NCBI GenBank assembly: GCA_007119395.1
Contig: SKPS01000153.1
Span: 1 to 32,419 of the forward strand
Reading direction: 5' to 3'
Origin: Lentimicrobiaceae bacterium
GTDB lineage: Bacteria > Bacteroidota > Bacteroidia > Bacteroidales > SKPS01
Length of the DNA: 32,419 nt
How positions within the stretch are numbered: the stretch's first letter is position 1; each line of letters opens with the position of its first letter. Position numbers and translations under genes: made by a program. Below the pieces are notes generated by a model. The model had not been told where the DNA came from and made no database searches. It saw nothing but the letters and a program-made list of their open reading frames with translations. This document shows, piece after piece, positions 1,332-31,010 of the stretch.

Positions 1332-2045
1332 ATGTCGAAGAGGGATGCATTTTTTAAGATGACGTATGGCTTGTACCTGATCAGTTGTACTGATGGTGAG
1401 GAGCACAATGCCTACATTGCAAACACGGCGTTTCAGGTTTCCAGCCAACCACCCCGATTTGCGATCAGTTGTCACAAAGAGAACTACTCATCACCTATGA
1501 TTGAGCGGGGCAAGGCGTTTGGTATATCGGTACTTCAGCAGGATACGCCATTGGAGTTTATCCAGCGTTATGGTTATCAGAGTGCCCACAAAGAGAAGAA
1601 GTTCGGTAGGTTGAATTACAAGCGTGGCAAAACGGGTGTGCCGGTGGTATACGATTATTCAGTGGCCTATTTCGAGTGTCGTTTGGTTGAGCAGGTTGAC
1701 GTTGGCACCCACTGGTTATTCATTGGGGAGTTGGTTGATTATGGTATGTTGAGCCGACTGGATGAGCCGTTGGATTACGCTTGGTACCGCAGGGAGCACA
1801 AAGCAGCCTCACCTTCGAAGGCGCCCACCTATGTGCCTGAAGAGGGGGAGGCGATGCCAGGTTCTGAGGTTCTGCAAGGTGCACCTTACGCTTGTGGGGT
1901 ATGTGAATATGTGTACAACCCGGCACGTGGTGATGTGGCGGCCGGTGTGTCTCCGGGTACTCCCTTTGAAGACCTTCCCCACGACTGGGTATGCCCCGTT
2001 TGCGGCGCAGGGAAGATGGTCTTCACAGAGACGGCTGTAGGTTAG
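1332..2045 (+). CDS. Flavin reductase-rubredoxin fusion (high-molecular-weight rubredoxin, Hrb-like)
   Basis: N-terminal flavin reductase-like domain (YGLYLIS...[12 protein letters not shown]...GTHWLFIGE). C-terminal rubredoxin with CGVC...YVY...[17 protein letters not shown]. Confidence 0.9.
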
Positions 2046-3262
2046 TCGGTCAGCCCGTTTTTGGTCACAATGCTCAGGGTGTCACGCGCAATCACCAGCT
2101 CCTCATTGGTGGTGATCACCATGGCTGTTTTGGCCGAACCGGGCCTGGTGAGAATCTCATCCTTGCCGCGCATTCCATGATTCTTCTGTGTGTCAAAGTC
2201 AATGCCCAGGTATGTAAGCCCTGTGGCTACCTTCTCACGTACCCCTGAATCGTTTTCTCCAATACCACCGGTAAAAATCAACAGGTCTACACCATCCATC
2301 ACCGCGGCATAAGCACCTACATACTTTTTCACCCGATGGCAATACATATCTTGTGCAAGCGTTGCCTGTGGATCTGCTTCCTTCTCAATGGCCGTCTCAA
2401 TGTCACGCATATCATAGGAAATACCATAGATACCCAGTACTCCGCTCTTTTTGTTGAACAGATTGTTCACCTCCTGAATGGAGAGGTTCTCTTTTTCCAT
2501 CAGATAGAGCACAACCCCGATATCGAGGTCACCGGTACGGGTACCCATCATCAACCCTTCAATGGGGGTAAAGCCCATGGACGTCTCAACAGATTTCCCT
2601 TTGTCAATGGCAGCAACCGATGCTCCATTGCCAAGGTGGCAGGTGATAATCTTTAACTCCTCCCAGTTTTTCCCAAGGATATCGCATGCTTTCTGGGCTA
2701 CGAATTTATGGCTGGTTCCGTGGAAACCATAACGGCGGATGTTGTACTTTTCGTAATACTCGTAAGGAATGCCATAGAGATAGGCATGTTTTGGCATGGT
2801 CTGGTGGAAGGATGTGTCGAACACAGCTACCTGAGGCACTTCCGGAAGAATTTCATCGATGGAGAGGATCCCTTTAAGGTTAGCCGGATTGTGTAATGGA
2901 GCCAGCTCACAACACTTTTCAATGTCTTGTTTGACCCGTTCGTTCACGCGAACGCTGCTCTTGAAGTTTTCACCACCATGAGCTACACGATGACCTACCG
3001 CTGTGATTTCCTCCTTGGCTTTAATGACGCCTTGTACAGGGTGGACAAGGATTTCCAGGATGAGGTTGATACCTGTTTGGTGATCGGGAATATCTTTCAC
3101 CATGTTGAACTTGTCGCGGTTCTTTGCCCTGTGGTTCAGTTCAGCGCAATTCATGCCAATTCTTTCCACGATCCCTTTGGCAAGCAAATCTGCTTCGTGC
3201 GACATATCGATCAATTGGTACTTGATAGAAGAGCTGCCACAATTCAGTACTAAGATTTTCAT
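2042..3262 (-). CDS. ackA: Acetate kinase
   Basis: Motifs [44 protein letters not shown] and TNEEL. Confidence 0.97.
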
Positions 3263-3306
3263 TTTTTCTGTTTAGGTTTACTGATATAATTTTGTGAAGG
3301 ATTGTT

Positions 3307-4311
3307 TTATTTTCCGGCGGCTTGGTTTGCCGTGATGGCAACTAAGTTTACGATATCGTCAACGGAACACCCTCTGGAGAGGTCGTTGATGGGTGCTGCC
3401 ATCCCTTGCAGTACGGGGCCTACAGCCTCTGCACCTGCAAGGCGTTGCACCAGTTTATAGGCGATATTTCCCACTTCCAGGGTGGGGAATACCAGCACAT
3501 TGGCTTTTCCGGCAATCTGGCTCTCGGGGGCTTTGCTTTTTCCAATTTTTTCCACGATCGCTGCATCAGCTTGCATCTCGCCATCAATCAGCAGATCGGG
3601 CGCCATTTCGCGTGCTATTTTTGTTGCTTCCACCACTTTGTCAACCATGGGATGGGAAGCGCTGCCCTTGGTGCTGAAACTCAGCATGGCAACCCTGGGC
3701 TCAATACCTGCAATGGCCTGTGCTGTACGTGCTGTGCTTACAGCAATCTGCGCCAGCTCGTCAGCCGTAGGATCAGGATGAACAGCACAGTCGGCAAAAA
3801 CCAGGATGCCCTGCTCACCCCATTGGGCATCGGGAAGTATCATGATAAACGCCCCTGATACCACACTGATGCCGGGGAGTGTTTTTACAATTTGAAATGC
3901 CGGCCTTAAAACATTGCCTGTGGCATTGGCAGCACCTGCTACTTCACCATCAGCATCACCGTTCTTGATCAACAGGGTGGCCAGATACAAAGGATCCTCC
4001 ACCTGCTGCAAGGCAACCTCACGTGTCATCCCCTTCTCCTTGCGTATGCCGTACAGCATGTCAGCATAAAACTCCTTCTTCGGATGATCTGCAGGGTCAA
4101 TGATCTCTGCAAGATGGATATGTGCCAAACCATGTGCCGCTGCCAAACCGTGAATCTCATCACGGTTACCCAGCAAAATAATCCGGGCAATCCCCTCGCC
4201 CAAGATAATATCAGCCGCTTTTAAGGTGCGTTCTTCTGTGCCTTCGGGTAATACAATACGTTTGTTTTGTGATGTTGCCCGCTCTCTGATGTCTTTTAAT
4301 AATTTGATCAT
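3307..4311 (-). CDS. pta: Phosphate acetyltransferase (short form)
   Basis: Motifs [39 protein letters not shown] and NDLSRGCS; directly upstream of ackA. Confidence 0.97.
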
Positions 4312-20616: not shown

Positions 20617-22233
20617 TTACATCAGGAAGCTCAGTAGGATACCTGCGGCCACTGCTGAGCCGATCACTCCTGATACATTGGGTGCCATTGCGTGCATCAG
20701 CAGGTGGTTGTTGGGATCGTTCAGAAGCCCTTCATGTTGTACAACCCTTGCGCTGTCGGGTACTGCCGATACGCCGGAGGCACCAATCAATGGGTTGATT
20801 TTGTTCTCCTTGGTCAGGAACAGGTTCATCAATTTGGCAGAGAGGAGGCCTCCGATGGTAGCCACCATAAAGCTAACGGCTCCTAGTACGAAAATCAGCA
20901 CCGACTCTTTGGTGAGGAACACATCGGCCTGTGTTGAAGCACCCACTGTTAGTCCAAGCAAAATGGTAACAATATCCACCATGGCATTTCTGGCTGTTTC
21001 AGCCAATCGACGTGTTACACCACTCTCTTTAAGGATGTTGCCAAAGAAGAGCATGCCCAGAAGTGGCAGTGCACTGGGTGCGATAAAGGTGGTGAGGAAG
21101 AGACCCACAATCGGGAACAGGATTTTCTCCAGTTTCGATACAGAACGTGGTGGTTTCATCCGGATGAGTCGCTCTTTTTTATTTGTCAGCAGTCTCATAA
21201 ACGGAGGCTGAATAACAGGAACAAGCGCCATGTATGAGTAAGCGGCAATCGCAATGGGGCCAATCAGGTTTTTGACGATGATGGGATCACCGGCTGCTGT
21301 ATAACCGATTACATTGATCCCGTTGGCTAGCTTTGAGGAGATAAAAATGGCGGTAGGGCCGTCGGCACCTCCGATAATACCGATAGCAGCAGCCTCAGGT
21401 GGAGCAAACCCCAGATAGAGGGCACCAAGGAACGTAGCGAAGATACCGATTTGTGCGGCCGCTCCCAACAGCATCAATTTGGGATTCGACATCAGCGATG
21501 AGAAGTCGGTCATCGCACCAATACCAAGAAAAATCAACGGGGGATAAATACCTGCTGTTACTCCAAAGTACAGGTAATTCAGCACACTGCCACTTTCGTA
21601 GATACCCAGCTCCAGATTGAACCCTTCGGCCTGGAAAAACGGGATATTCCCCATGATGATCCCTGTTCCGATCGGTATCAACAGCAGCGGTTCGTAATCG
21701 TATTTGATGGCAAGGTAGATAAAGATCAACCCCACAATAAACATAATCAGGTGACCTGGTGTAGCATTGGGGAATCCTGAAAATTCGATAAAGTTCAACA
21801 ATCCGGCAACCGAAGTGGAGTGTCGTTTGTAGACGTCATTACCAATCACCAGGTGTCCATCCTGGTCGACAAATCCACGCTTGGTGGATAGCTCCACCGG
21901 ACCATGCGTTGCAAACTCCAGTACAATAATGTTGTCATCTACCTTCCAGCTACCGATAAATCGTTGTTTGGCAGAATCGAGGGCAAAAGCGCCGTCATCC
22001 TCAAAGAACAGCATTTTGTAGCGTTTCACCGTAGCACTGTCATCAGCACGTAAACGGTAGCCGTCGCTTTTGTTCAGCCATTTCCCCCTTGCAAGGTGAT
22101 CTTTCAATTCTGCTTTCGTTTTCTGCCCCGGAATGGAGGTAGAAATATCCTCCTGCACATAGTTGCCCATAAACAGGGCAGATAGGATGGACAGGAATAT
22201 TATGATCCCGATAAGGGTTGTCAATCTCTTCAT
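20617..22233 (-). CDS. Na+-translocating decarboxylase beta subunit (MmdB/OadB/GcdB family) with extra N-terminal soluble domain
   Basis: Motifs EPLLLIPIG, IFLGIGAMTDF, IGIIGGADGPT, IAAYSYMALVPVIQPP, GVSAVP and HAMAPNVSGVIGS. ATG at 22233 preferred over 22308, which overlaps the upstream gene. Confidence 0.93.
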   Translation of the reverse strand: MKRLTTLIGIIIFLSILSALFMGNYVQEDISTSIPGQKTKAELKDHLARGKWLNKSDGYRLRADDSATVKRYKMLFFEDDGAFALDSAKQRFIGSWKVDDNIIVLEFATHGPVELSTKRGFVDQDGHLVIGNDVYKRHSTSVAGLLNFIEFSGFPNATPGHLIMFIVGLIFIYLAIKYDYEPLLLIPIGTGIIMGNIPFFQAEGFNLELGIYESGSVLNYLYFGVTAGIYPPLIFLGIGAMTDFSSLMSNPKLMLLGAAAQIGIFATFLGALYLGFAPPEAAAIGIIGGADGPTAIFISSKLANGINVIGYTAAGDPIIVKNLIGPIAIAAYSYMALVPVIQPPFMRLLTNKKERLIRMKPPRSVSKLEKILFPIVGLFLTTFIAPSALPLLGMLFFGNILKESGVTRRLAETARNAMVDIVTILLGLTVGASTQADVFLTKESVLIFVLGAVSFMVATIGGLLSAKLMNLFLTKENKINPLIGASGVSAVPDSARVVQHEGLLNDPNNHLLMHAMAPNVSGVIGSAVAAGILLSFLM

Positions 22234-22270
22234 CTGGTGGAAACCTTTCTTGTGCAACACTTCTTTATTC

Positions 22271-22702
22271 TTATTCCATTTCGAGCAAAACTGCTCCCTG
22301 TAATACATTGTCTCCCGCCGAGACCTTGATTGATTTCACAACACCATCTTGTTCAGCCTGGATATTGTTCTCCATTTTCATGGCCTCCATCAGCAAGAGC
22401 TTATCGCCACGTTTCACGGCATCACCGGGTTTGACAAGGATCTGCAAAATGGTACCCGGCAGGGGTGAGGTTACGGGAATGGCTACCCCTCCACCTGCAG
22501 GAGGAGGTGCAGCTTCAGGAGAAGATGGAGCCGCTTTTACAACCGGACGCTTGATCTTAGGGGTTTTGGTGGCAGAGTCCTTGTGTGTTACCTCCACCTT
22601 GAACGGTGTGCCGTTCACCTCTATATCAGCTACATTGTCTGCATATTCCTTGATCTCAACTGCGTATTCAAGTCCGTTTATTACAAATTTATACTGCTTC
22701 AT
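22271..22702 (-). CDS. Biotin carboxyl carrier protein of the decarboxylase
   Basis: Pro/Ala linker, SPLPG and the EAMKMEN biotinylation motif. Confidence 0.95.
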   Translation of the reverse strand: MKQYKFVINGLEYAVEIKEYADNVADIEVNGTPFKVEVTHKDSATKTPKIKRPVVKAAPSSPEAAPPPAGGGVAIPVTSPLPGTILQILVKPGDAVKRGDKLLLMEAMKMENNIQAEQDGVVKSIKVSAGDNVLQGAVLLEME

Positions 22703-22741
22703 ATTGTTTCCGGTTTTTCCTCAAAAAATTTCTTCACTCAT

Positions 22742-23104
22742 TTACCAGTTCTTGCGATTCAGGGTGTTCAAACCGTAAATCTTTGAACTCCACGGGGAGT
22801 AACTCCGGGATACCTTTCTGATGGTAATCACATTGCTCTCTTCGTCGTGTATTTCACTGAAAAAGAGATGTAGCGCCATAGAAATGGCTGCGTTCTCCTC
22901 TCCGCTCACTTGTGTGGGTTCTTTCTGTTGTGACACATCCACCCCCTTTTTCTTCAGCCTGTTACGTGCCTCAATGGAAAGGATTTTGGGGAGGTTGTAG
23001 AACAGGGTTACCAAACTTACCAATACAGTAAATACGATAATATACCCCACAAGCGCAATAGTAATGTGTTCATTGGTAATATGTTCAAAACTTGCCAGGA
23101 TCAT
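22742..23104 (-). CDS. OadG-family (gamma/delta) membrane anchor subunit
   Basis: Single N-terminal TM helix, AAISMAL and HDEES...SPWSSKIY tail; lies in the decarboxylase operon. Confidence 0.85.
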   Translation of the reverse strand: MILASFEHITNEHITIALVGYIIVFTVLVSLVTLFYNLPKILSIEARNRLKKKGVDVSQQKEPTQVSGEENAAISMALHLFFSEIHDEESNVITIRKVSRSYSPWSSKIYGLNTLNRKNW

Positions 23105-23122
23105 AGCTAAACTGTTGATAGA

Positions 23123-24682
23123 TTATAGAGGGATGTTACAATGCTTTCTCGGAGGGTTGGTGTCTTTTTTGGTTGCCAGTGCCTGCAGTGCTCTGATGAC
23201 CCTGAAGCGGGTGTTTCGGGGCTCAATGACATCGTCAATATATCCGAATTTGGCAGCCTCATAAGGGTTGGCAAACTTGTCTTTGTACTCTTGTTCTTTC
23301 TCAGCGATGAATCGTTTTTTCTCCTCTTCATCGGTTATCTCAGCCAACTCTCTACTTCTGAGCACCTCAATGGCACCTTTGGGTCCCATAACTGCAATCT
23401 CAGCAGAAGGCCAAGCATAATTGATGTCACCTCGTAACTGTTTGCTGCTCATTACATCGTGAGCACCACCATATGATTTCCTCAGGGTGATGGTCACCTT
23501 TGGTACCGTTGCCTCACCATAGGCAAACATCAGTTTGGCTCCATGAAGAATGATGCCACCGTACTCCTGTTGGGTGCCGGGAAGGAAACCGGGTACATCT
23601 ACCATCGTGACCAATGGTATATTGAAGGCATCGCAAAATCTTACAAAGCGTGCTGCCTTACGTGATGCATCAATATCTAGCACACCTGCCAGGTAGCTGG
23701 GCTGATTGGCCACAACGCCCACAGGCATTCCATCAAACTTGGCAAAACCAGTTACAATGTTTTTGGCATAATGACGATGCACTTCCAGAAACTCGTTGTC
23801 ATCTACTACAGCGTAGATAATGTCTTTTACGTCGTACGGTTTATTGGGGTCTGAAGGGATAAAATAATTCAGTGAGTCTTCCAGTCTGTCGATGGGGTCG
23901 TTGCACTGTACCATGGGTGGGTCTTCCAGGTTATTGGAAGGCAGGTACGAGAGCAGCTTGCGAATCATCATCAGCCCCTCTTCTTCTGTTTCAGAGATAA
24001 AGTGGCTAACACCTGATTTGGCGGCATGCACATGAGCCCCACCCAGTTCGTCAACCGTAACCACTTCGCCGGTTACTGTTTTCACCACCTTAGGGCCTGT
24101 AACAAACATGTAACTGTTGCGCTCACTCATCAGGATGAAATCAGTAAGGGCAGGTGAGTAAACAGCTCCTCCGGCACATGGGCCGAAGATAGCAGAGATC
24201 TGTGGTATCACACCGGATGCATTGATGTTGCGCTGAAAGATCTCGGCATAACCCGCCAGGCTTTTCACACCTTCCTGGATTCGTGCACCACCACTGTCGT
24301 TCAAACCAATCACCGGAGCACCTACTTTCATGGCCTGGTCCATCACCTTGCAGATCTTTTTGGCATATGCCTCTGACAGGGATCCACCGAAAACAGTGAA
24401 ATCCTGTGAGTAAACATACACAATACGACCATCAATGGTACCATAACCAGTTACTACACCATCAGACAAAATACGTTGCTTTTCCAACCCAAAATCGTGG
24501 GAGGTGTGGGTGACAAACATGTCAAACTCCTCAAAACTTCCTTCGTCTAACAGAATTTCAATACGCTCACGGGCTGTGAGTTTGCCCTTTTTATGCTGTG
24601 ATTCAATTCTGGCTATTCCACCACCGAGCCTCGCTTGCTCGCGCCTCGCCATGAGGTCCTTAATTTTGTCTTCTATCGCCAT
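23123..24682 (-). CDS. mmdA: Methylmalonyl-CoA decarboxylase alpha / acyl-CoA carboxyltransferase subunit
   Basis: Motifs [51 protein letters not shown] and KHCNIPL; lies between the epimerase and the membrane subunits. Confidence 0.9.
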
Positions 24683-24703
24683 TTTGATCAATATCTGTAT
24701 GGG

Positions 24704-25123
24704 TTATTCCTTTACTTTCTTGTCTTCGCAAAACTCAGTCAACACACCAAATGTGCTTTTCGGATGTAAAAAGGCAATATCGAGCCCTTCAGCTCCGCGA
24801 CGGGGCACGGAGTCAATCAGTGAGACCCCATGCTCTTTGGCAGCCTCTAGGCATTGCTCTATCCCTTTCACTGCAAACGCTATATGATGAACTCCCTGGC
24901 CACGCTTCTCGATGAATTTTCCAACCGGACCCTCAGGATCTGTAGACTCAAGCAACTCTATCTTGGTGTCACCCACCTTGAAAAAAGCTGTGCGAACCCG
25001 CTGATCCTTCACCTCTTCAATCGCATAGCAGGTGAGACCCAATACCTTCTCGTAATAGGCTATGGCAGCATCCATGTCCTTTACCGCAATCCCAATGTGT
25101 TCAATGTGCGTTGGCTTCATCAT
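24704..25123 (-). CDS. mce: Methylmalonyl-CoA epimerase
   Basis: VOC-fold motifs HIEHIGIAV, IELLE, GVHHIAF and AFLHPKSTFGVLTE. Confidence 0.95.
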   Translation of the reverse strand: MMKPTHIEHIGIAVKDMDAAIAYYEKVLGLTCYAIEEVKDQRVRTAFFKVGDTKIELLESTDPEGPVGKFIEKRGQGVHHIAFAVKGIEQCLEAAKEHGVSLIDSVPRRGAEGLDIAFLHPKSTFGVLTEFCEDKKVKE

Positions 25124-25354: not shown

Positions 25355-26065
25355 CTATACAATGGTTTTTACCCTGTTTCTCTCCTGAATGTATTGTTCA
25401 TATTTCCCTTCAAAGCGGATTCTCGCAGCCACTACAGTATCAAACTGTTTCAGGCTGGCAATCAGCAATTCACACACCTCCCTCAGCGCCATATTTCCCC
25501 CTGTAGAGCCGGTGATATAATCAGCCAAACGGTGTTCCAATACATATCGTCTGGTAAGGGGAGCTGCCGGCTGGTTAAAAAACAGCCTCAGCCCGCACCG
25601 CTGAGCCAAGGTGAAATCAATGATGTCATCAAAAAAAAATGCTGTCTCTTCCGGTACCACTGCATGGTCACGTGACAGAACAGAAAGCGCTTCATCCTTA
25701 CGCTTCACACCTGTCATTACCATATTAAAGTGCTCACGGGTTGCAAACTGCTTCGCTGTTTTATTGTCAGCACCCGACACGATCGCAGTAATGGGCATCT
25801 CCCCCTTGTTTTGTAGCCAGATGGCAAAACGGAGCATGTTCACCCCCATTGAGTCAGCCTCCGTGAAGCCACTTCCGTCGAGATGGGTCTTATGGCCATT
25901 GTTGAATACACCGTCCCAGTCGAATACCAAAGCCCTGACACGCGCTAAACGCCCGGCAAATGATGCATACCCCTCAGGAAACTCACCCCCCAACTCTTTG
26001 AAAGGGGTGATGAGCGCGCTGTCAAACCCAGGCTGTTGTTGTGGATCGTGATGCATGTTGTTCAC
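25355..26065 (-). CDS. KdsC-like HAD phosphatase (divergent)
   Basis: HAD motif I FDWDGV, motif II IVSG, K/DD motifs (KRK...FDDIID) and GGNMALREVCELL resembling the KdsC GG.GA.RE tail. GTGA overlap with the upstream gene; alternative ATG at 26056. Confidence 0.8.
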   Translation of the reverse strand: MNNMHHDPQQQPGFDSALITPFKELGGEFPEGYASFAGRLARVRALVFDWDGVFNNGHKTHLDGSGFTEADSMGVNMLRFAIWLQNKGEMPITAIVSGADNKTAKQFATREHFNMVMTGVKRKDEALSVLSRDHAVVPEETAFFFDDIIDFTLAQRCGLRLFFNQPAAPLTRRYVLEHRLADYITGSTGGNMALREVCELLIASLKQFDTVVAARIRFEGKYEQYIQERNRVKTIV

Positions 26066-27084
26066 GGCCTGCCGTTTTTAAAGAGATCATGGATGTCCAT
26101 GATGCCGATTGGCTTACCATCTTTGGTAACCACAATGTTATCGATTTTCTTTTTCCTGAACAACAATGAAGCATTGTGCAGTGACTCCTCTGCATCGATG
26201 CAGACAGGTGTTTTCACGGGCATGGTATCGAGCTTTTTACGAAGAATTCCTTCCCCTTGTTGCTCAAGCATTCTACGCAGGTCTCCATCGGTGAAGATTC
26301 CTATCAGTGCTCCGTTGTCGTCTGTGATGCTGACGGCGCCAAACTGTGAAGTGGTCATAATGACCAGTGCATCCAGGATGGTTTTATGATGGCTTATGGT
26401 GGAGGGTGCATCTGAGATCACCTGGTGAACCTTAAGGGTGATGAGTCTGGTGTGCTCAAAGAACTGCTGTGTGCCAATGTCGGTGAAATGGTTTTTGAAC
26501 AATTGCTTCATCACCTTCCAGGGAATGGTACAGGCATGTACGCCAAGGTTCAATGCGTTGCGAACGTGTTCTGAATGCCTGACGGATGAGAACATAATTT
26601 TCGAAGGATATCGGTACCTGTCGGTGATCTCAACACATTGCCTGATGAGCCCCAGTGCGTCGTGCCCTTCGTCCTGCAATCGGCCTACCAATGGGCACAC
26701 ATAGGTGGCCCCTGCCGACAACGCCATATAGGCCTGCTGAATCGTATAGACTAGATGTACGTTCACCATCAGCCCTTGATCAATCAACTGCCTGCACGCC
26801 TTTATGCCGTCGGTGCTGACAGGGATTTTAAAGACTGTTCGTGACGGGTCGAGGCCCAATCCGATCAAACGATGCGCTTCAGAACAGATCTCCTCAGCAT
26901 CTTCTCCCAGTGCTTCCACCTGCAAAACAGGCACCCTGGTGGAGAGCTGAAGAATGGTGCTGTTGATGTCTGTGATACCATCACGGTGCATAAAAGTTGG
27001 TGTGGTGGTAAGCCCCGCAAGGATGCCCAATGACGCGGCCTCTTCAATCTCTTCAATATTGGCTGAATCAAGGTATAATTCCAT
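26062..27084 (-). CDS. Transaldolase/fructose-6-phosphate-aldolase family barrel fused to a C-terminal KdsD/KpsF-type CBS pair
   Basis: Residues 1-212: MELYLDSA, GLTTTPT, VFKIP (Schiff-base Lys86), AGATYVCPLVGRL, SSVR and CTIP. Residues ~214-340: LIGIFTDGDLRR and GIMDIHDL. Start placed at ATG 27084. Confidence 0.88.
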   Translation of the reverse strand: MELYLDSANIEEIEEAASLGILAGLTTTPTFMHRDGITDINSTILQLSTRVPVLQVEALGEDAEEICSEAHRLIGLGLDPSRTVFKIPVSTDGIKACRQLIDQGLMVNVHLVYTIQQAYMALSAGATYVCPLVGRLQDEGHDALGLIRQCVEITDRYRYPSKIMFSSVRHSEHVRNALNLGVHACTIPWKVMKQLFKNHFTDIGTQQFFEHTRLITLKVHQVISDAPSTISHHKTILDALVIMTTSQFGAVSITDDNGALIGIFTDGDLRRMLEQQGEGILRKKLDTMPVKTPVCIDAEESLHNASLLFRKKKIDNIVVTKDGKPIGIMDIHDLFKNGRP

Positions 27085-27964
27085 GTTCGTTTTTGTATTG
27101 GTTGATCGTGTTATGTATCTCAAGCAGTGGTTTTAAAAACATTTCCAAGTGTTGGGTATGCATTTGGCTTGCTGCATCGCACAACGCTTTGTCTGGTGCT
27201 GTGTGGGTTTCAATGAAAAGTCCGTCAATGCCTGCTGCCACGGCACTTCGTGCCAGTACACTCAAATATTCACGGGAACCGCCGGCTGGGTTGGAGCTTG
27301 GAATTCCATATCGTCTTACTGAATGTGTAACATCAAATACCACCGGGCATCCGGTTCGTTGCAGATGGTAAAAGCTCCGTGGATCAACCACCAGGTCGTT
27401 GTAACCAAAAGAGTAACCTCGCTCGGTTACCAGGATATTTCTGTTCCCTGCAGCCTCCACCTTGGCAACAGGCTTCAACATCTGTTCCGGTGCCAGAAAC
27501 TGACCTCGTTTGATGTTGACGACCTTGTTCGTTGAGGCCACCTTTTCCAATAGCTCGGTCTGCATGCATAGGTAGGCTGGTATTTGCAATACATCCAATA
27601 CAGCTGCCGCCTCATCAACGTGTTCGGGATAGTGCACATCCGATAACACAGGGAAGCCAAAATCGCCTCTGATCCGTTCCAGAATCCGCAACCCTTTTTC
27701 AAGCCCGGGGCCACGGTAGTAATTGGCAACACTGCGGTTGTCTTTGAGGAAAGAGGATTTGAAAATCACAGGTATGTTTAATCTGGCTGAAATACCTGCC
27801 AGTTGCTCAGCTACCTGCATCATAAGAGGCTCCTCTTCAATCACACAAGGGCCTGAAATTAAAAAGAGGGGAGGTGCTCCGCATACCAAGTCACCTATCA
27901 CCACCTGATGCTTTGTGCGTGACAGGTGACGATCGATTGGCCTAAGGTTGTTTTTCGTAGTCAT
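27068..27964 (-). CDS. kdsA: 3-deoxy-8-phosphooctulonate (KDO8P) synthase-like, non-canonical motifs
   Basis: Motifs GPCVIE, RGPG, SDVH, QIPA, GQF, ERG.SFGYNDLVVD, FDVTHSV and GLFIETH..P..ALCD. Start placed at ATG 27964. Confidence 0.85.
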   Translation of the reverse strand: MTTKNNLRPIDRHLSRTKHQVVIGDLVCGAPPLFLISGPCVIEEEPLMMQVAEQLAGISARLNIPVIFKSSFLKDNRSVANYYRGPGLEKGLRILERIRGDFGFPVLSDVHYPEHVDEAAAVLDVLQIPAYLCMQTELLEKVASTNKVVNIKRGQFLAPEQMLKPVAKVEAAGNRNILVTERGYSFGYNDLVVDPRSFYHLQRTGCPVVFDVTHSVRRYGIPSSNPAGGSREYLSVLARSAVAAGIDGLFIETHTAPDKALCDAASQMHTQHLEMFLKPLLEIHNTINQYKNEHGIIP

Positions 27965-27978
27965 ATCTGCATTGCTGG

Positions 27979-29787
27979 TTAAAAACTGATTTCCCAAACT
28001 ACCTCTTCCTCCCAGTTGGCTCGCAAAGAGACGGCACTGGGGATCACCTTCACTTTTTCGGGTTGTATTCTTTTCCAATAGTCACCGGTATCCCACCTGC
28101 CATTGCCATTGCTGTCGAGAATCGCTTTCAGGTAGTACTGTCCGGCAGGCAGGTATGGGAAAGTGATGGCCCCATCCTCAGAGAGGTTGCCACGGGTTAT
28201 CTCATTCATTCTTTCATCTGTGAGCAGCACAATCACTGAGGTTGCCTGCTCACCTTCCAATCCTGAAATCAACGTAAGGGTTCCAAAGTCTTCGCTGCGT
28301 GCCGGTGTAAAATGATAGCGGATGGTATCGTTGTTTGTGCCATCCCAGCCTGTAATCATTCCGGCGGGAATCATCAGGGTATACTCTGTGCCCTGTTCCA
28401 GGGTATTGGTAATTGCGAAGCGTATGGGTACCAGGGAGTCGATCACCTGAAGCTGCAGCGGGATAGTGTCTTCAGAAGTGGAGAGTGTGCTGCTGGTCAG
28501 GTCTATATGGCTCAATGGTGACGAGAAGGTAATGATGGGGTCACGTGCTGGCCTCAAAGAGCCACCGCGAGGCACATTCATCGACAGGGTGGTGGTGGGT
28601 TCCCGTAACCTGGTTCGGCCGGTACCGGTGGGCTGCCGAAGAGCAGTCCGCAGCGTGTCTGCGAAATAGGGTGTGTCAACAATAGCAAGCGGCAATGCTT
28701 CAAAGGTGTGTTGCTGTAACCATACCCACAAGGTGTCACGACCGGGCGTTAATTGCCATAGCATGATGGAGTCGAGACCCGGCTCAGGAGAAAAGATGTC
28801 AGGTTGCTGAACCGGATAACGGAATGCTACATACGCTTTGTTCCTGCCGTCTGATCGCGATGTAACCACTCTTTGGACACTGTCCTCTCCAACGAACATA
28901 CGCAATACAAAAGGTTCAGAATGTGTGGTGACTGTGTCTGTTCCATTTTCTGTGAGCGTATCCAATGTTGATTCATCGGTGGTGATAACAGCCGAGAGTG
29001 TATCGGAGAGCCCGGCGTTGCTCAAGGTGTCAGGATCGTCCGGTGGAGGCGACGGCATCCGCCATGGTCTCACAGGCTCGCTGTGAAAGGCCACCCCTTC
29101 GGTGAGGAGGTCGTAACGCATGTTGTTGTTCAGGTCAGCCAAGGCAAACAAATGATACAGCGTGTCAGCAATGTGTTGAAATTCAAAATGGCCGTTTTGG
29201 TCAGGGCGCGTAACATACCGCGGCTTCTCCAGGGCCACGGCTGAATCGCTCATGGGGAGCTTGTAGAGCATCACCAGGATGTTCTCTTCAACCTCCTGAT
29301 CCCACGCATTGAACACCCTCCCTTTAATGGTGTGCTGATCGATCTGCGGACCGGTTGAAAAGTAATAGGTATATGGTGGCAGCGGGTTCCCTTCGGTGAT
29401 GTCTTTGATGGCATCACCAAAGAAAAAGGCATAGGTTGCATTGGAGATTAAAGTGTCATGGAACCTGATGGTAAGATTTCTGCCACGAAGTCTTATCTCT
29501 ACCGGATTAGCAAGAGGTGGTGAAACGAGGAGCTGTTGCTGCAGGTTTCCGGTTTGAATGAACTCACTAAAGCGCAATGTAAAGCTGTTCTCTGTGAAAT
29601 CGACACCACCGGAGGGGGGTGTCTCCAGGATCACTTCCGGCGGAGTGGTATCACGCGGGCCACCCGTGGGAGATACAATGTTAGCACAACCGGCAGTCAA
29701 CAATGCAAGCAGATAGATGATCCCCCTTTTCGGCACGGCCGAAGTGATCTTGTGTCGCAGGTTCTGCATTATACAAAGTTCTTTCAT
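27979..29787 (-). CDS. Lipoprotein with Ig-like (Big_5/SbsA-like) domains
   Basis: Lipobox LTAG-C followed by ANIVSPTGGPRDTTPP and FSEFI; DxNxN-type loops; C-terminal ANWE. Confidence 0.8.
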   Translation of the reverse strand: MKELCIMQNLRHKITSAVPKRGIIYLLALLTAGCANIVSPTGGPRDTTPPEVILETPPSGGVDFTENSFTLRFSEFIQTGNLQQQLLVSPPLANPVEIRLRGRNLTIRFHDTLISNATYAFFFGDAIKDITEGNPLPPYTYYFSTGPQIDQHTIKGRVFNAWDQEVEENILVMLYKLPMSDSAVALEKPRYVTRPDQNGHFEFQHIADTLYHLFALADLNNNMRYDLLTEGVAFHSEPVRPWRMPSPPPDDPDTLSNAGLSDTLSAVITTDESTLDTLTENGTDTVTTHSEPFVLRMFVGEDSVQRVVTSRSDGRNKAYVAFRYPVQQPDIFSPEPGLDSIMLWQLTPGRDTLWVWLQQHTFEALPLAIVDTPYFADTLRTALRQPTGTGRTRLREPTTTLSMNVPRGGSLRPARDPIITFSSPLSHIDLTSSTLSTSEDTIPLQLQVIDSLVPIRFAITNTLEQGTEYTLMIPAGMITGWDGTNNDTIRYHFTPARSEDFGTLTLISGLEGEQATSVIVLLTDERMNEITRGNLSEDGAITFPYLPAGQYYLKAILDSNGNGRWDTGDYWKRIQPEKVKVIPSAVSLRANWEEEVVWEISF

Positions 29788-31010
29788 AGTTTGAATTCTA
29801 CTACATCAGGTGACAACCGTCGTACCGGCAGCCAGGCAGCCAGCAAACCAATGGTCATCACCGAGAAAAATATCAGCACAAAATCAGCCCAATGAATCTT
29901 TACGGGATAAGTATCGAAAACCAGGGTATCCGCTACCCCAATGCCAATGAGACCAAACTGTTGCTGTATCCAGGCCAGCAACCCTCCGATAAAAAGGCCC
30001 GTGACAACACCCACGAAAGAGATCTGTAGCCCCTCGAGTAAAAAGATTCTGCGGATGATGCGGTTGCTGGCTCCCATTGCCTGCAAAATGGCGATGTCTT
30101 TCTTTTTCTCCAGAATCAGCATTGTAAGAGACCCGACAACGTTGAAGATGGCCAGTAACAGAATAAAAGAGAGGATGGCAAAGATCGCCCATTTCTCTGA
30201 TCGTATGATTCTGTATAAAAGCTCCTGTTGCTCAAACCGGTCTTGAATCACATATTTCTCTCCCATCAATTGCTGCAACTGCTCTTTGATTCGACGTGTT
30301 GATGCGTTGGGCTTCAGGCCGAGTTCCAGTGAAGTGATTTCGTTGTCGTATGCCATCAGGTCACGCATAAGGTCTATGGGTACCAAAACATACCGGTTGT
30401 CGATCTCTTGTTGCACGGAAAACACCCCTGATGGCCACATCTCTCTGGTGGTGAAAGCCGAAAGTCTGTCGCCGGGTGAAGCAAACCGGTTGGCCATGTA
30501 CACCTCTACGGGGTGTTCAGCCACATCGATGATGGCACCCAGCCTGAAAGCAACACCCGATCCAAAGACTGCACGCGGCATCCTTCCGGGTGCCACCACA
30601 AAGTTGCCCGCATAGACCATGGTGTCCAACCCTGTCATCTCATCGTAATAACCGCTAACACCTTTTAGTGTTGCCAAATGCTGCTTTTCACGGAAACGCA
30701 ATAAAGCGTTCTCTTCGATCACCTCATGGTAATGAACAATCCCTTCCACACCTCTGATCTCCTGAGCCATATATTCGTCGATCTCAAAGGTCTTCCCTTC
30801 AGCAGCCGTAACCCTGATGTCAGGGTGAAAAGCATTGAACAGAGAAAGCACCACCCCTTCAAATCCATTAAAAACAGACAATACCAAAATAAACGCCATG
30901 CTGCCACCCATCACCCCAATGGCCGAAATCGCAGAAATCAGGTTGATGGCATTGTGCTTCTTTTTTGAAAGGAGGTAACGCCTGGCTATATATAATGGAA
31001 AGAGATTCAT
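29784..31010 (-). CDS. LolC/E-like (FtsX/MacB family) ABC transporter permease
   Basis: Motifs IARRYL, VLSVFNGF, large periplasmic domain, EKKKDIAILQAMGA...IRRIFLLEG and YPV; ATGA overlap with rbfA. Confidence 0.88.
   Translation of the reverse strand: MNLFPLYIARRYLLSKKKHNAINLISAISAIGVMGGSMAFILVLSVFNGFEGVVLSLFNAFHPDIRVTAAEGKTFEIDEYMAQEIRGVEGIVHYHEVIEENALLRFREKQHLATLKGVSGYYDEMTGLDTMVYAGNFVVAPGRMPRAVFGSGVAFRLGAIIDVAEHPVEVYMANRFASPGDRLSAFTTREMWPSGVFSVQQEIDNRYVLVPIDLMRDLMAYDNEITSLELGLKPNASTRRIKEQLQQLMGEKYVIQDRFEQQELLYRIIRSEKWAIFAILSFILLLAIFNVVGSLTMLILEKKKDIAILQAMGASNRIIRRIFLLEGLQISFVGVVTGLFIGGLLAWIQQQFGLIGIGVADTLVFDTYPVKIHWADFVLIFFSVMTIGLLAAWLPVRRLSPDVVEFKL

Follow-up and report, generated by a model that had tools for sequence, protein, structure and literature searches.

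We analysed contig SKPS01000153.1 of the Lentimicrobiaceae bacterium assembly GCA_007119395.1 (the window, 32,419 nucleotides (nt), taken as a whole), which encodes on its minus strand a protein joining a transaldolase/fructose-6-phosphate aldolase (TAL/FSA) barrel to a pair of CBS domains. This fusion is probably a non-orthologous replacement of arabinose-5-phosphate isomerase, supplying arabinose 5-phosphate (A5P) to 3-deoxy-D-manno-octulosonate 8-phosphate (KDO8P) synthase. Kdo (3-deoxy-D-manno-octulosonate) is the conserved sugar that joins lipid A to the rest of lipopolysaccharide (LPS), and its pathway of four enzymes, KdsD, KdsA, KdsC and KdsB, is both textbook material and an antibacterial drug target. 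Escherichia coli lacking kdsD and gutQ is an A5P auxotroph, and Bacteroides fragilis has a single-SIS isomerase. The replacement role is drawn from the operon position of the fusion, the KdsD-type character of its CBS pair, its mutual exclusion with KdsD and the preservation of the arrangement in two distant clades. An earlier reading of the sequence (the original prediction) had already proposed an isomerase replacement, and the gene order beside kdsA and the phyletic pattern without KdsD support that interpretation without proving it. That reading did not cover the remodelled active site, the KdsC-like paralogue found with the fusion or the separate clade of the linked KdsA.

The module consists of three genes that abut or overlap, all on the minus strand: kdsA, the fusion gene and a gene for a KdsC-like phosphatase paralogue of the HAD family. 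The kdsA open reading frame (ORF; 27068..28078) was assigned to KDO8P synthase by NF003543 (341.8 bits, cut-off 242) and TIGR01362 (328.8 bits, cut-off 314); it is listed from a TTG at 28078, and the ATG at 27964 (residue 39) is the probable start, since it clears the upstream gene ending at 27979. The fusion ORF is listed as 26062-27123, and because all 120 homologues in the family alignment start ME(L/F)Y, the true start is taken to be the ATG at 27084, giving a gene at 26062..27084 that encodes 340 amino acids (aa) followed by a TGA stop, as supported by the translation, Pfam, NCBIfam, the homologues and a structure model. This ATG sits inside the end of kdsA with a 17 nt overlap, while the TGA stop and the GTG that opens the KdsC-like gene (25355..26065, 236 aa) have 4 nt in common; an alternative ATG for the latter gene is found at 26056.

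The original prediction had described the N-terminal 212 aa of the fusion as a complete small transaldolase/FSA fold without any SIS domain, and both statements agree with our analysis: Pfam places TAL_FSA (PF00923) at aa 3-201 (6.9e-35; 121.2 bits against a cut-off of 27) and returns no SIS match. The barrel thus delimited (aa 1-212, 26449..27084, minus strand) has a remodelled active site, as described below. The C-terminal text quoted in that prediction as CBS-like (LITLKVHQVI...GAVSITDDNGALIGIFTDGDLRR...GIMDIHDLF) is present in the translation, and the CBS match reaches 1e-16 in Pfam; this CBS pair (aa 213-340, 26065..26448, minus strand) carries an invariant FTDGDLRR motif (aa 264-271, 26272-26295, minus strand). 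The proposed structure model was built with AlphaFold2 (mean predicted local distance difference test score 91.1, predicted template modelling score 0.69), and its barrel superposes on the small transaldolases 1vpx and 3r8r in Foldseek with target template modelling scores of 0.92-0.94 and a root-mean-square deviation of 1.4 Å over about 212 columns. The nearest NCBIfam model for the barrel is fsa_talC_mipB (TIGR00875), at 171.1 bits against a cut-off of 245.95, and the fusion falls below the cut-off of every NCBIfam transaldolase (Tal) and FSA model. The match to the kpsF model TIGR00393 is confined to profile positions 154-267 and reaches 52.9 bits, the cut-off being 203.7.

This architecture is widespread. 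A homologue search across 5.8 billion proteins, with 8000 candidates scored, gave 4041 matches at E<=1e-5, and the best 120 of these, which form the family alignment used throughout, all combine PF00923 with PF00571 over 333-347 aa at 61-100% identity. The databases name these homologues only as 'transaldolase family protein' or 'CBS domain-containing protein'. Among 80 loci taken from species genomes are cultured Runella, Siphonobacter, Flammeovirga pacifica and Xanthocytophaga flavus, together with many metagenome-assembled genomes (MAGs) of Cytophagales, Flavobacteriales, Chitinophagaceae and Sphingobacteriales. The fusion is therefore not confined to one genome, and an assembly chimera, which had been raised as a way in which the original prediction could fail, is ruled out by the thousands of TAL-CBS homologues that include these cultured genera. 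A full-text search of the literature outside subscription journals and supplementary files found no paper on a transaldolase-CBS fusion, on a KdsD substitute of such a kind or on another way of supplying A5P for Kdo. Fold and Schiff-base catalysis were known before; what is new is the proposed role in the pathway, the active-site constellation and the keeping of the KdsD regulatory module.

The origin of the CBS pair was traced by profile, structure and tree comparisons. For aa 216-338, the highest NCBIfam scores were those of kpsF TIGR00393 (52.9 bits), KdsD NF008141 (51.5) and GutQ NF008581 (50.2), with the next CBS-containing model at 40.3. The best CBS match in the PDB was the CBS pair of an arabinose 5-phosphate isomerase (4o9k, 6.9e-14), further isomerase entries reached 5e-9 and 1.5e-7, and other CBS entries stood at 8e-7 or weaker. 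A profile built from 28 fusion CBS pairs and run on 30 KdsD-bearing genomes of the phylum returned the KdsD C-terminus as its best match in every one of them (53-91 bits, against at most 49 for any other CBS protein). These observations were further strengthened by a maximum-likelihood tree of 66 CBS pairs (28 from fusions, 30 from Bacteroidota KdsD and 8 of the standalone or IMPDH type), in which the fusion and KdsD pairs form one clade (support 100/99) with the 8 other pairs outside. Inside that clade, fusion and KdsD pairs are reciprocally monophyletic (94/95 and 96/89). The original prediction that the CBS pair would nest with those of KdsD/KpsF was thus right as to the grouping, which the profile, PDB and tree results all recover, and not borne out as to nesting, as the fusion pairs are sister to the sampled Bacteroidota KdsD pairs. 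Judged by sequence, the CBS pair of the fusion is KdsD-type, and, being inherited from KdsD, it presumably keeps the regulatory or assembly role that it held there, for which the original prediction had suggested possible feedback by CMP-Kdo or nucleotides. KdsD/KpsF/GutQ share with the fusion this same type of C-terminal CBS pair and the genomic partners kdsA, kdsB and kdsC-like, and differ from it in that their catalytic SIS domain is replaced by the TAL/FSA barrel.

The distributions of the fusion and KdsD are mutually exclusive. In a phylum sample of 301 genomes, for which three lists were compared by hand, KdsA (E<=1e-60) was found in 221 genomes (220 over the model cut-off), KdsD (E<=1e-40) in 216 (210 over the model cut-off) and the full-length fusion in four (G000, G125, G195 and G267). 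The 221 genomes with KdsA divide into 213 with KdsD and no fusion, four with the fusion and no KdsD, and four with neither, such that exactly four of the eight genomes with KdsA and no KdsD are the fusion carriers; three of the 301 have KdsD without KdsA. KdsD and the full-length fusion occur together in none of the 301 genomes, although such counts are descriptive rather than a statistical test, the genomes being related and not independent events, which limits the weight that they lend to a replacement. The exclusion is visible even within one genus (g41), in which KdsD is carried by G183 and the fusion by G195 and G267. Among 30 further fusion genomes, 10 of them isolates, KdsD was over the cut-off in none and KdsA in 29, and the sub-threshold matches to the KdsD model were to the CBS part only or, weakly, to GmhA- or GlmS-sized frames. 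In total, all 34 fusion genomes examined are without KdsD. As a separate observation, 77 of the 301 genomes show neither KdsA nor KdsD at these thresholds, and whole families are affected (e.g. f29, 0/49; f19, f24, f27, f28 and f31); such families may lack Kdo or may use very divergent genes.

The window's own genome (2.74 Mb, 372 contigs, 86.4% complete) follows the same pattern. No KpsF/KdsD over the cut-off was found in this 86.4%-complete assembly, where the best TIGR00393 match is the CBS pair of the fusion itself, and the only SIS proteins are GlmS and, from a heptose cluster, GmhA. The genome also carries KdsB and two genes for canonical KdsC.

Gene order in relatives points in the same direction. 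Of the 72 loci with at least 1 kb of upstream sequence, 48 have KdsA (53-66% identical) upstream in the same orientation, and of the 75 loci with at least 800 nt on the downstream side, 50 have the KdsC-like gene there. Where kdsA and the fusion are spaced by 0.7-1.9 kb, as in 9 loci examined, the inserted genes are heterogeneous and no conserved extra partner between the two was found in those 9 loci; the inserts include a lipid A acyltransferase, a Zeta_toxin/AAA-like kinase and a Uma2 endonuclease (L068:3984-4877, L065:4339-4947, L074:4238-4885) as well as DoxX and a glycosyltransferase. A barrel-only HMMER library search followed by a search of metagenome contigs revealed a second clade, 30-33% identical to the window's fusion over its full length, of which 7 of 8 loci were examined and several records carry Tara source tags. 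In this clade KdsA stands immediately upstream on the same strand in all six loci with room for it, and one locus has the order KdsB-KdsA-fusion-UDP-GlcNAc 2-epimerase. KpsF holds the same position in capsule clusters. The second clade (L223-L230; P0138, P0271-P0385) is apparently marine and comprises Tal-like proteins with H110/C130/L132, both with and without the CBS pair; among the sources named for it are a Chloroflexota MAG and, perhaps through a binning error, a 'Heimdallarchaeota' MAG.

The linked KdsA provides a further line of evidence. In a quick tree search comparing 29 fusion-linked KdsA sequences with 20 from KdsD-bearing genomes, the fusion-linked sequences, the window's KdsA among them, form their own clade on a long branch, split off at 100 in the Shimodaira-Hasegawa-like approximate likelihood-ratio test. 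The KdsA proteins of G195, G267 and G125 group with the fusion type and apart from their own genus or family (G195 and G267 versus their congener G183), which suggests that the entire module was replaced or transferred. The KdsC-like protein has no Pfam match and scores well below the KdsC models (NF007019, 53 bits versus 208; TIGR01670, 41.6-42.2 versus 106.95), yet its fold is KdsC-like (Atlas) and the HAD motifs D49xD51, K123 and D146-D147 are at least 95% conserved (n=63 sequences). At E<=1e-20 it occurs in the 301-genome sample only in the four fusion carriers, and it was found in 26 of the 30 other fusion genomes. From the split of the KdsA clade and this distribution, the three genes behave as one unit; kdsA, the fusion and the KdsC-like gene appear to travel as one Kdo module, which would have replaced kdsA and kdsD. 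The KdsC-like protein was also considered as the module's only KDO8P phosphatase, and this candidate was rejected, as canonical KdsC is present in the window's genome, G304 and G310.

Several observations weigh against the fusion as the A5P-supplying enzyme. Four genomes (G079, G151 and G283 of family f12, and G077 of f35; loci L142 and L183-L186) are complete or near-complete and have KdsA with neither KdsD nor the fusion. Another A5P source must therefore exist, and it follows that a missing KdsD is not by itself proof that the fusion takes its place. The Tal of these four has the canonical signature, and no lead to a KdsD replacement emerged in them, the kdsA neighbourhood of G079 holding only OmpA-like and MgsA-like genes; they may rely on a third A5P source. 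Linkage is likewise incomplete, with no kdsA within 5 kb in 24 of the 72 loci, chiefly in Runella and Siphonobacter. The KdsC-like gene was not found in four of the 30 other fusion genomes, all Siphonobacter (three Siphonobacter genomes tested have neither this gene nor canonical KdsC), and it co-exists with canonical KdsC in all three genomes checked, namely the window's genome, G304 and G310. Finally, no second TAL_FSA gene was found in the window's 86.4%-complete genome, where the fusion may have a pentose-phosphate role.

These points lend themselves to an alternative in which the fusion is an aldolase or transaldolase for some other sugar-phosphate step of envelope polysaccharides, A5P comes from another enzyme, and the link to kdsA reflects only a shared LPS or capsule context. 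The four genomes with KdsA and neither KdsD nor the fusion favour it by requiring a further A5P source, as do the second-clade loci, which lie among polysaccharide genes (UDP-GlcNAc 2-epimerase, methyltransferases and an acyltransferase), and the fusion-specific KdsC-like phosphatase that travels with the gene. We nevertheless regard this alternative as improbable in view of the exclusion between KdsD and the full-length fusion in both genome sets, the specifically KdsD-derived CBS pair, the direct overlap with kdsA in the window and the KdsB-KdsA-fusion order in the second-clade locus.

A different alternative, that of an ordinary pentose-phosphate transaldolase acting on fructose 6-phosphate (F6P) and sedoheptulose 7-phosphate with an added CBS regulatory tail, was addressed by a residue comparison in which the 120 fusions were aligned with 24 standalone Bacteroidota Tal. 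Residues D6, T26, T27, E57, K86, N108, R135, S167 and R169 are common to both groups, and the Schiff-base Lys86 (26827-26829, minus strand, as for all codons given here), Asp6 and Glu57 (26914-26916), like the phosphate-binding Arg and Ser, are invariant in 120/120 fusions. By contrast, all 120 fusions have T28, Q55, H110, Y113, C130, L132 and Q137 in place of the N, S, T, F, S, F and D present in all 24 standalone Tal; at position 30 the fusions have T, while the standalone Tal have S in 22 and T in 2 of 24. Four of these replacements fall in the catalytic pocket: N28T (27001-27003), T110H (26755-26757), S130C (26695-26697) and F132L (26689-26691). A further feature of the fusions is an insertion of two residues at positions 77-78. 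The small (decameric-type) transaldolases of Bacillus subtilis (3r8r) and Thermotoga maritima (1vpx), which are the best sequence and fold matches (2.3e-40, 36-38% identity), conform to the standalone pattern throughout: they share D6, the catalytic Glu, K86, N108, R135, S167 and R169 with the fusion, have the Tal residues at the seven exchanged positions (28, 55, 110, 113, 130, 132 and 137), and possess neither the insertion nor the CBS pair.

The reading as an ordinary transaldolase draws on the small-transaldolase fold and Schiff-base residues, on the database name 'transaldolase' and on the lack of a second TAL_FSA gene among those found in the window's incomplete genome. Against it stand the family-wide replacement of N28, T110, S130 and F132 and the scores below every NCBIfam Tal and FSA cut-off (171 versus 246 bits for TIGR00875). 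In addition, 28 of 30 fusion genomes have at least one extra, canonical Tal, scoring 187-300 bits with PF00923 where the fusion barrel there scores 105-129 bits. It would also leave the kdsA linkage and the KdsD exclusion unexplained. This alternative, which had been named as a possible undoing of the original prediction, therefore fails on sequence, and we consider it very improbable. Neither established class accommodates the protein, as the fusion lacks the N28/T110/S130/F132 pocket and the NCBIfam Tal scores that mark small Tal, and has E57, L132 and C130, together with a score below the TIGR00875 cut-off, where FSA is defined by Gln59, Tyr131 and Ala129.

The wider family, sampled as the best 150 representatives from the barrel search, brings in a last alternative. 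The H110/C130/L132 signature occurs among these representatives in CBS-fused proteins (e.g. P0130, P0137, P0139 and P0146) and also in standalone proteins of about 215-221 aa (e.g. P0125, P0136, P0138 and P0178). Three full-length fusions, P0140, P0143 and P0165, have lost Lys86, Asp6, Arg135 and the phosphate-binding Ser/Arg while keeping a high-scoring KdsD-type CBS pair, and P0143 is 40% identical to the window's fusion over 334 aa with a single one-residue gap. These three are possible pseudo-enzymes, and some members of the family may act non-catalytically, which adds to the points against a catalytic A5P role. No dead-barrel relative was found beside an active fusion in five genomes tested, in which the best matches were the active fusion itself. 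That the window's fusion regulates or scaffolds KDO8P synthase without being a catalyst, sensing a metabolite through the barrel and CBS pair, fits these relatives and the distinct, co-inherited clade of the linked KdsA, but is the least probable of the alternatives, since 120/120 family members retain the catalytic Lys, Asp and Glu together with the phosphate-binding Arg and Ser, arguing for catalysis, and A5P supply in the KdsD-less fusion genomes would be left unexplained.

Returning to the fusion as a catalytic source of A5P, a comparison with E. coli FsaA offers a guide to its chemistry. The two share the TIM-barrel family, the Schiff-base Lys (K86 of the fusion = K85), Asp6 and a tyrosine (Y113 = Y112), and differ at 24% identity in Glu57, His110, Cys130 and Leu132, which map to Gln59, Thr109, Ala129 and Tyr131 of FsaA, and in the CBS pair, which FsaA lacks. 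In Tal, the Ser at position 130 binds the C1 hydroxyl of the donor. According to the accessible part of a 2026 study of FSA (PMC13259622), Lys85 provides covalent catalysis and Tyr131 is the principal proton shuttle, Asp6 and Asn28 recognise the donor, Ala129 is a donor-pocket residue and the catalytic water is held by Gln59/Thr109/Tyr131; the accessible part of another source reports that A129S raises the F6P efficiency of FSA about 20-fold (PMC7767278). Mapped onto the fusion, the covalent machinery is kept and the positions governing donor choice and proton relay are all exchanged, with His where Tal and FSA have Thr.

TAL/FSA in this form would be a neofunctionalised member of the transaldolase/fructose-6-phosphate aldolase family that takes over the KdsD/KpsF job for Kdo and LPS. 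The enzyme would still work through a lysine Schiff base/enamine (K86, D6 and E57), with His110 replacing the Thr-water-Phe/Tyr proton relay and with N28T and S130C adapting the pocket to a donor other than dihydroxyacetone; the loss, through S130C, of the Ser binding the C1 hydroxyl fits such a donor.

Provided that the fusion does supply A5P, aldol addition of glycolaldehyde to glyceraldehyde 3-phosphate (G3P) is our tentative first choice among the possible reactions. The formation of A5P from glycolaldehyde and G3P by FSA, invoked in the original prediction, is borne out for E. coli FsaA, which has been used as an 'Ara5P aldolase' giving only A5P from these substrates with a Km for G3P of 0.56 mM, as described in the accessible part of PMC9947464. 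This is the very product needed here, and since FSA stereochemistry gives the arabino configuration, the precedent makes an A5P-forming aldol reaction the simplest chemical reading. No link between FsaA and Kdo synthesis was seen in the accessible portions of the FsaA literature consulted. A physiological source of free glycolaldehyde was not found, which is a weakness of the aldol route and another point against the proposed role.

A possible second route is 2-epimerisation of ribose 5-phosphate to A5P, by way of a C1 iminium/enamine or by retro-aldol cleavage and re-addition, in which the pair of bases would be Glu57 and the newly acquired His110 and no unusual substrate would be needed; AraD is a precedent for a retro-aldol epimerase. 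Non-covalent isomerisation of ribulose 5-phosphate is rather unlikely, and we know of no TAL/FSA-family enzyme that isomerises this substrate, which likewise counts against a direct substitute for KdsD. Some other reaction leading to A5P is less likely again. A further precedent for a small-Tal scaffold put to work on a new substrate is the sulfofructose transaldolase BmSF-TAL (8bc3; PDB match 7.3e-21), which, judged by its entry name, has another substrate and pathway, and which has no CBS pair.

Taken more broadly, we hold with middling confidence that there is a second entry step into Kdo synthesis, in which a transaldolase-derived Schiff-base enzyme makes A5P without a sugar isomerase, by aldol addition or 2-epimerisation of ribose 5-phosphate, governed by a KdsD-type CBS pair. 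It would belong to a self-contained module with its own KdsA and KdsC-like phosphatase that replaces kdsA and kdsD even within one genus and that is also found in a distant, apparently marine clade. If true, this would close an annotation gap, since the fusion genomes look unable to make A5P, and would give the transaldolase/FSA family, much employed in biocatalysis, a reaction specificity new to it. It would also represent a natural experiment on the KdsD CBS pair, retained while the catalytic domain was exchanged, and would show Kdo genes to be exchangeable as a co-adapted module.

No mobile-element genes were found among the window ORFs scanned near the kdsA module. Upstream lies a gene for a 602-aa Big_5-domain protein with an N-terminal lipoprotein-like signal (27979-29787, minus strand), which ends 15 nt short of the probable kdsA start and is itself preceded by an FtsX/MacB-type permease gene (29784-31010). 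Elsewhere the window (20617-25123 and 2042-4311, both minus strand) holds an ordinary anaerobe gene set, including a cluster for a Na+-pumping methylmalonyl-CoA/oxaloacetate decarboxylase (carboxyltransferase, epimerase, gamma, biotin carrier and beta subunits) and the genes for acetate kinase and phosphotransacetylase.

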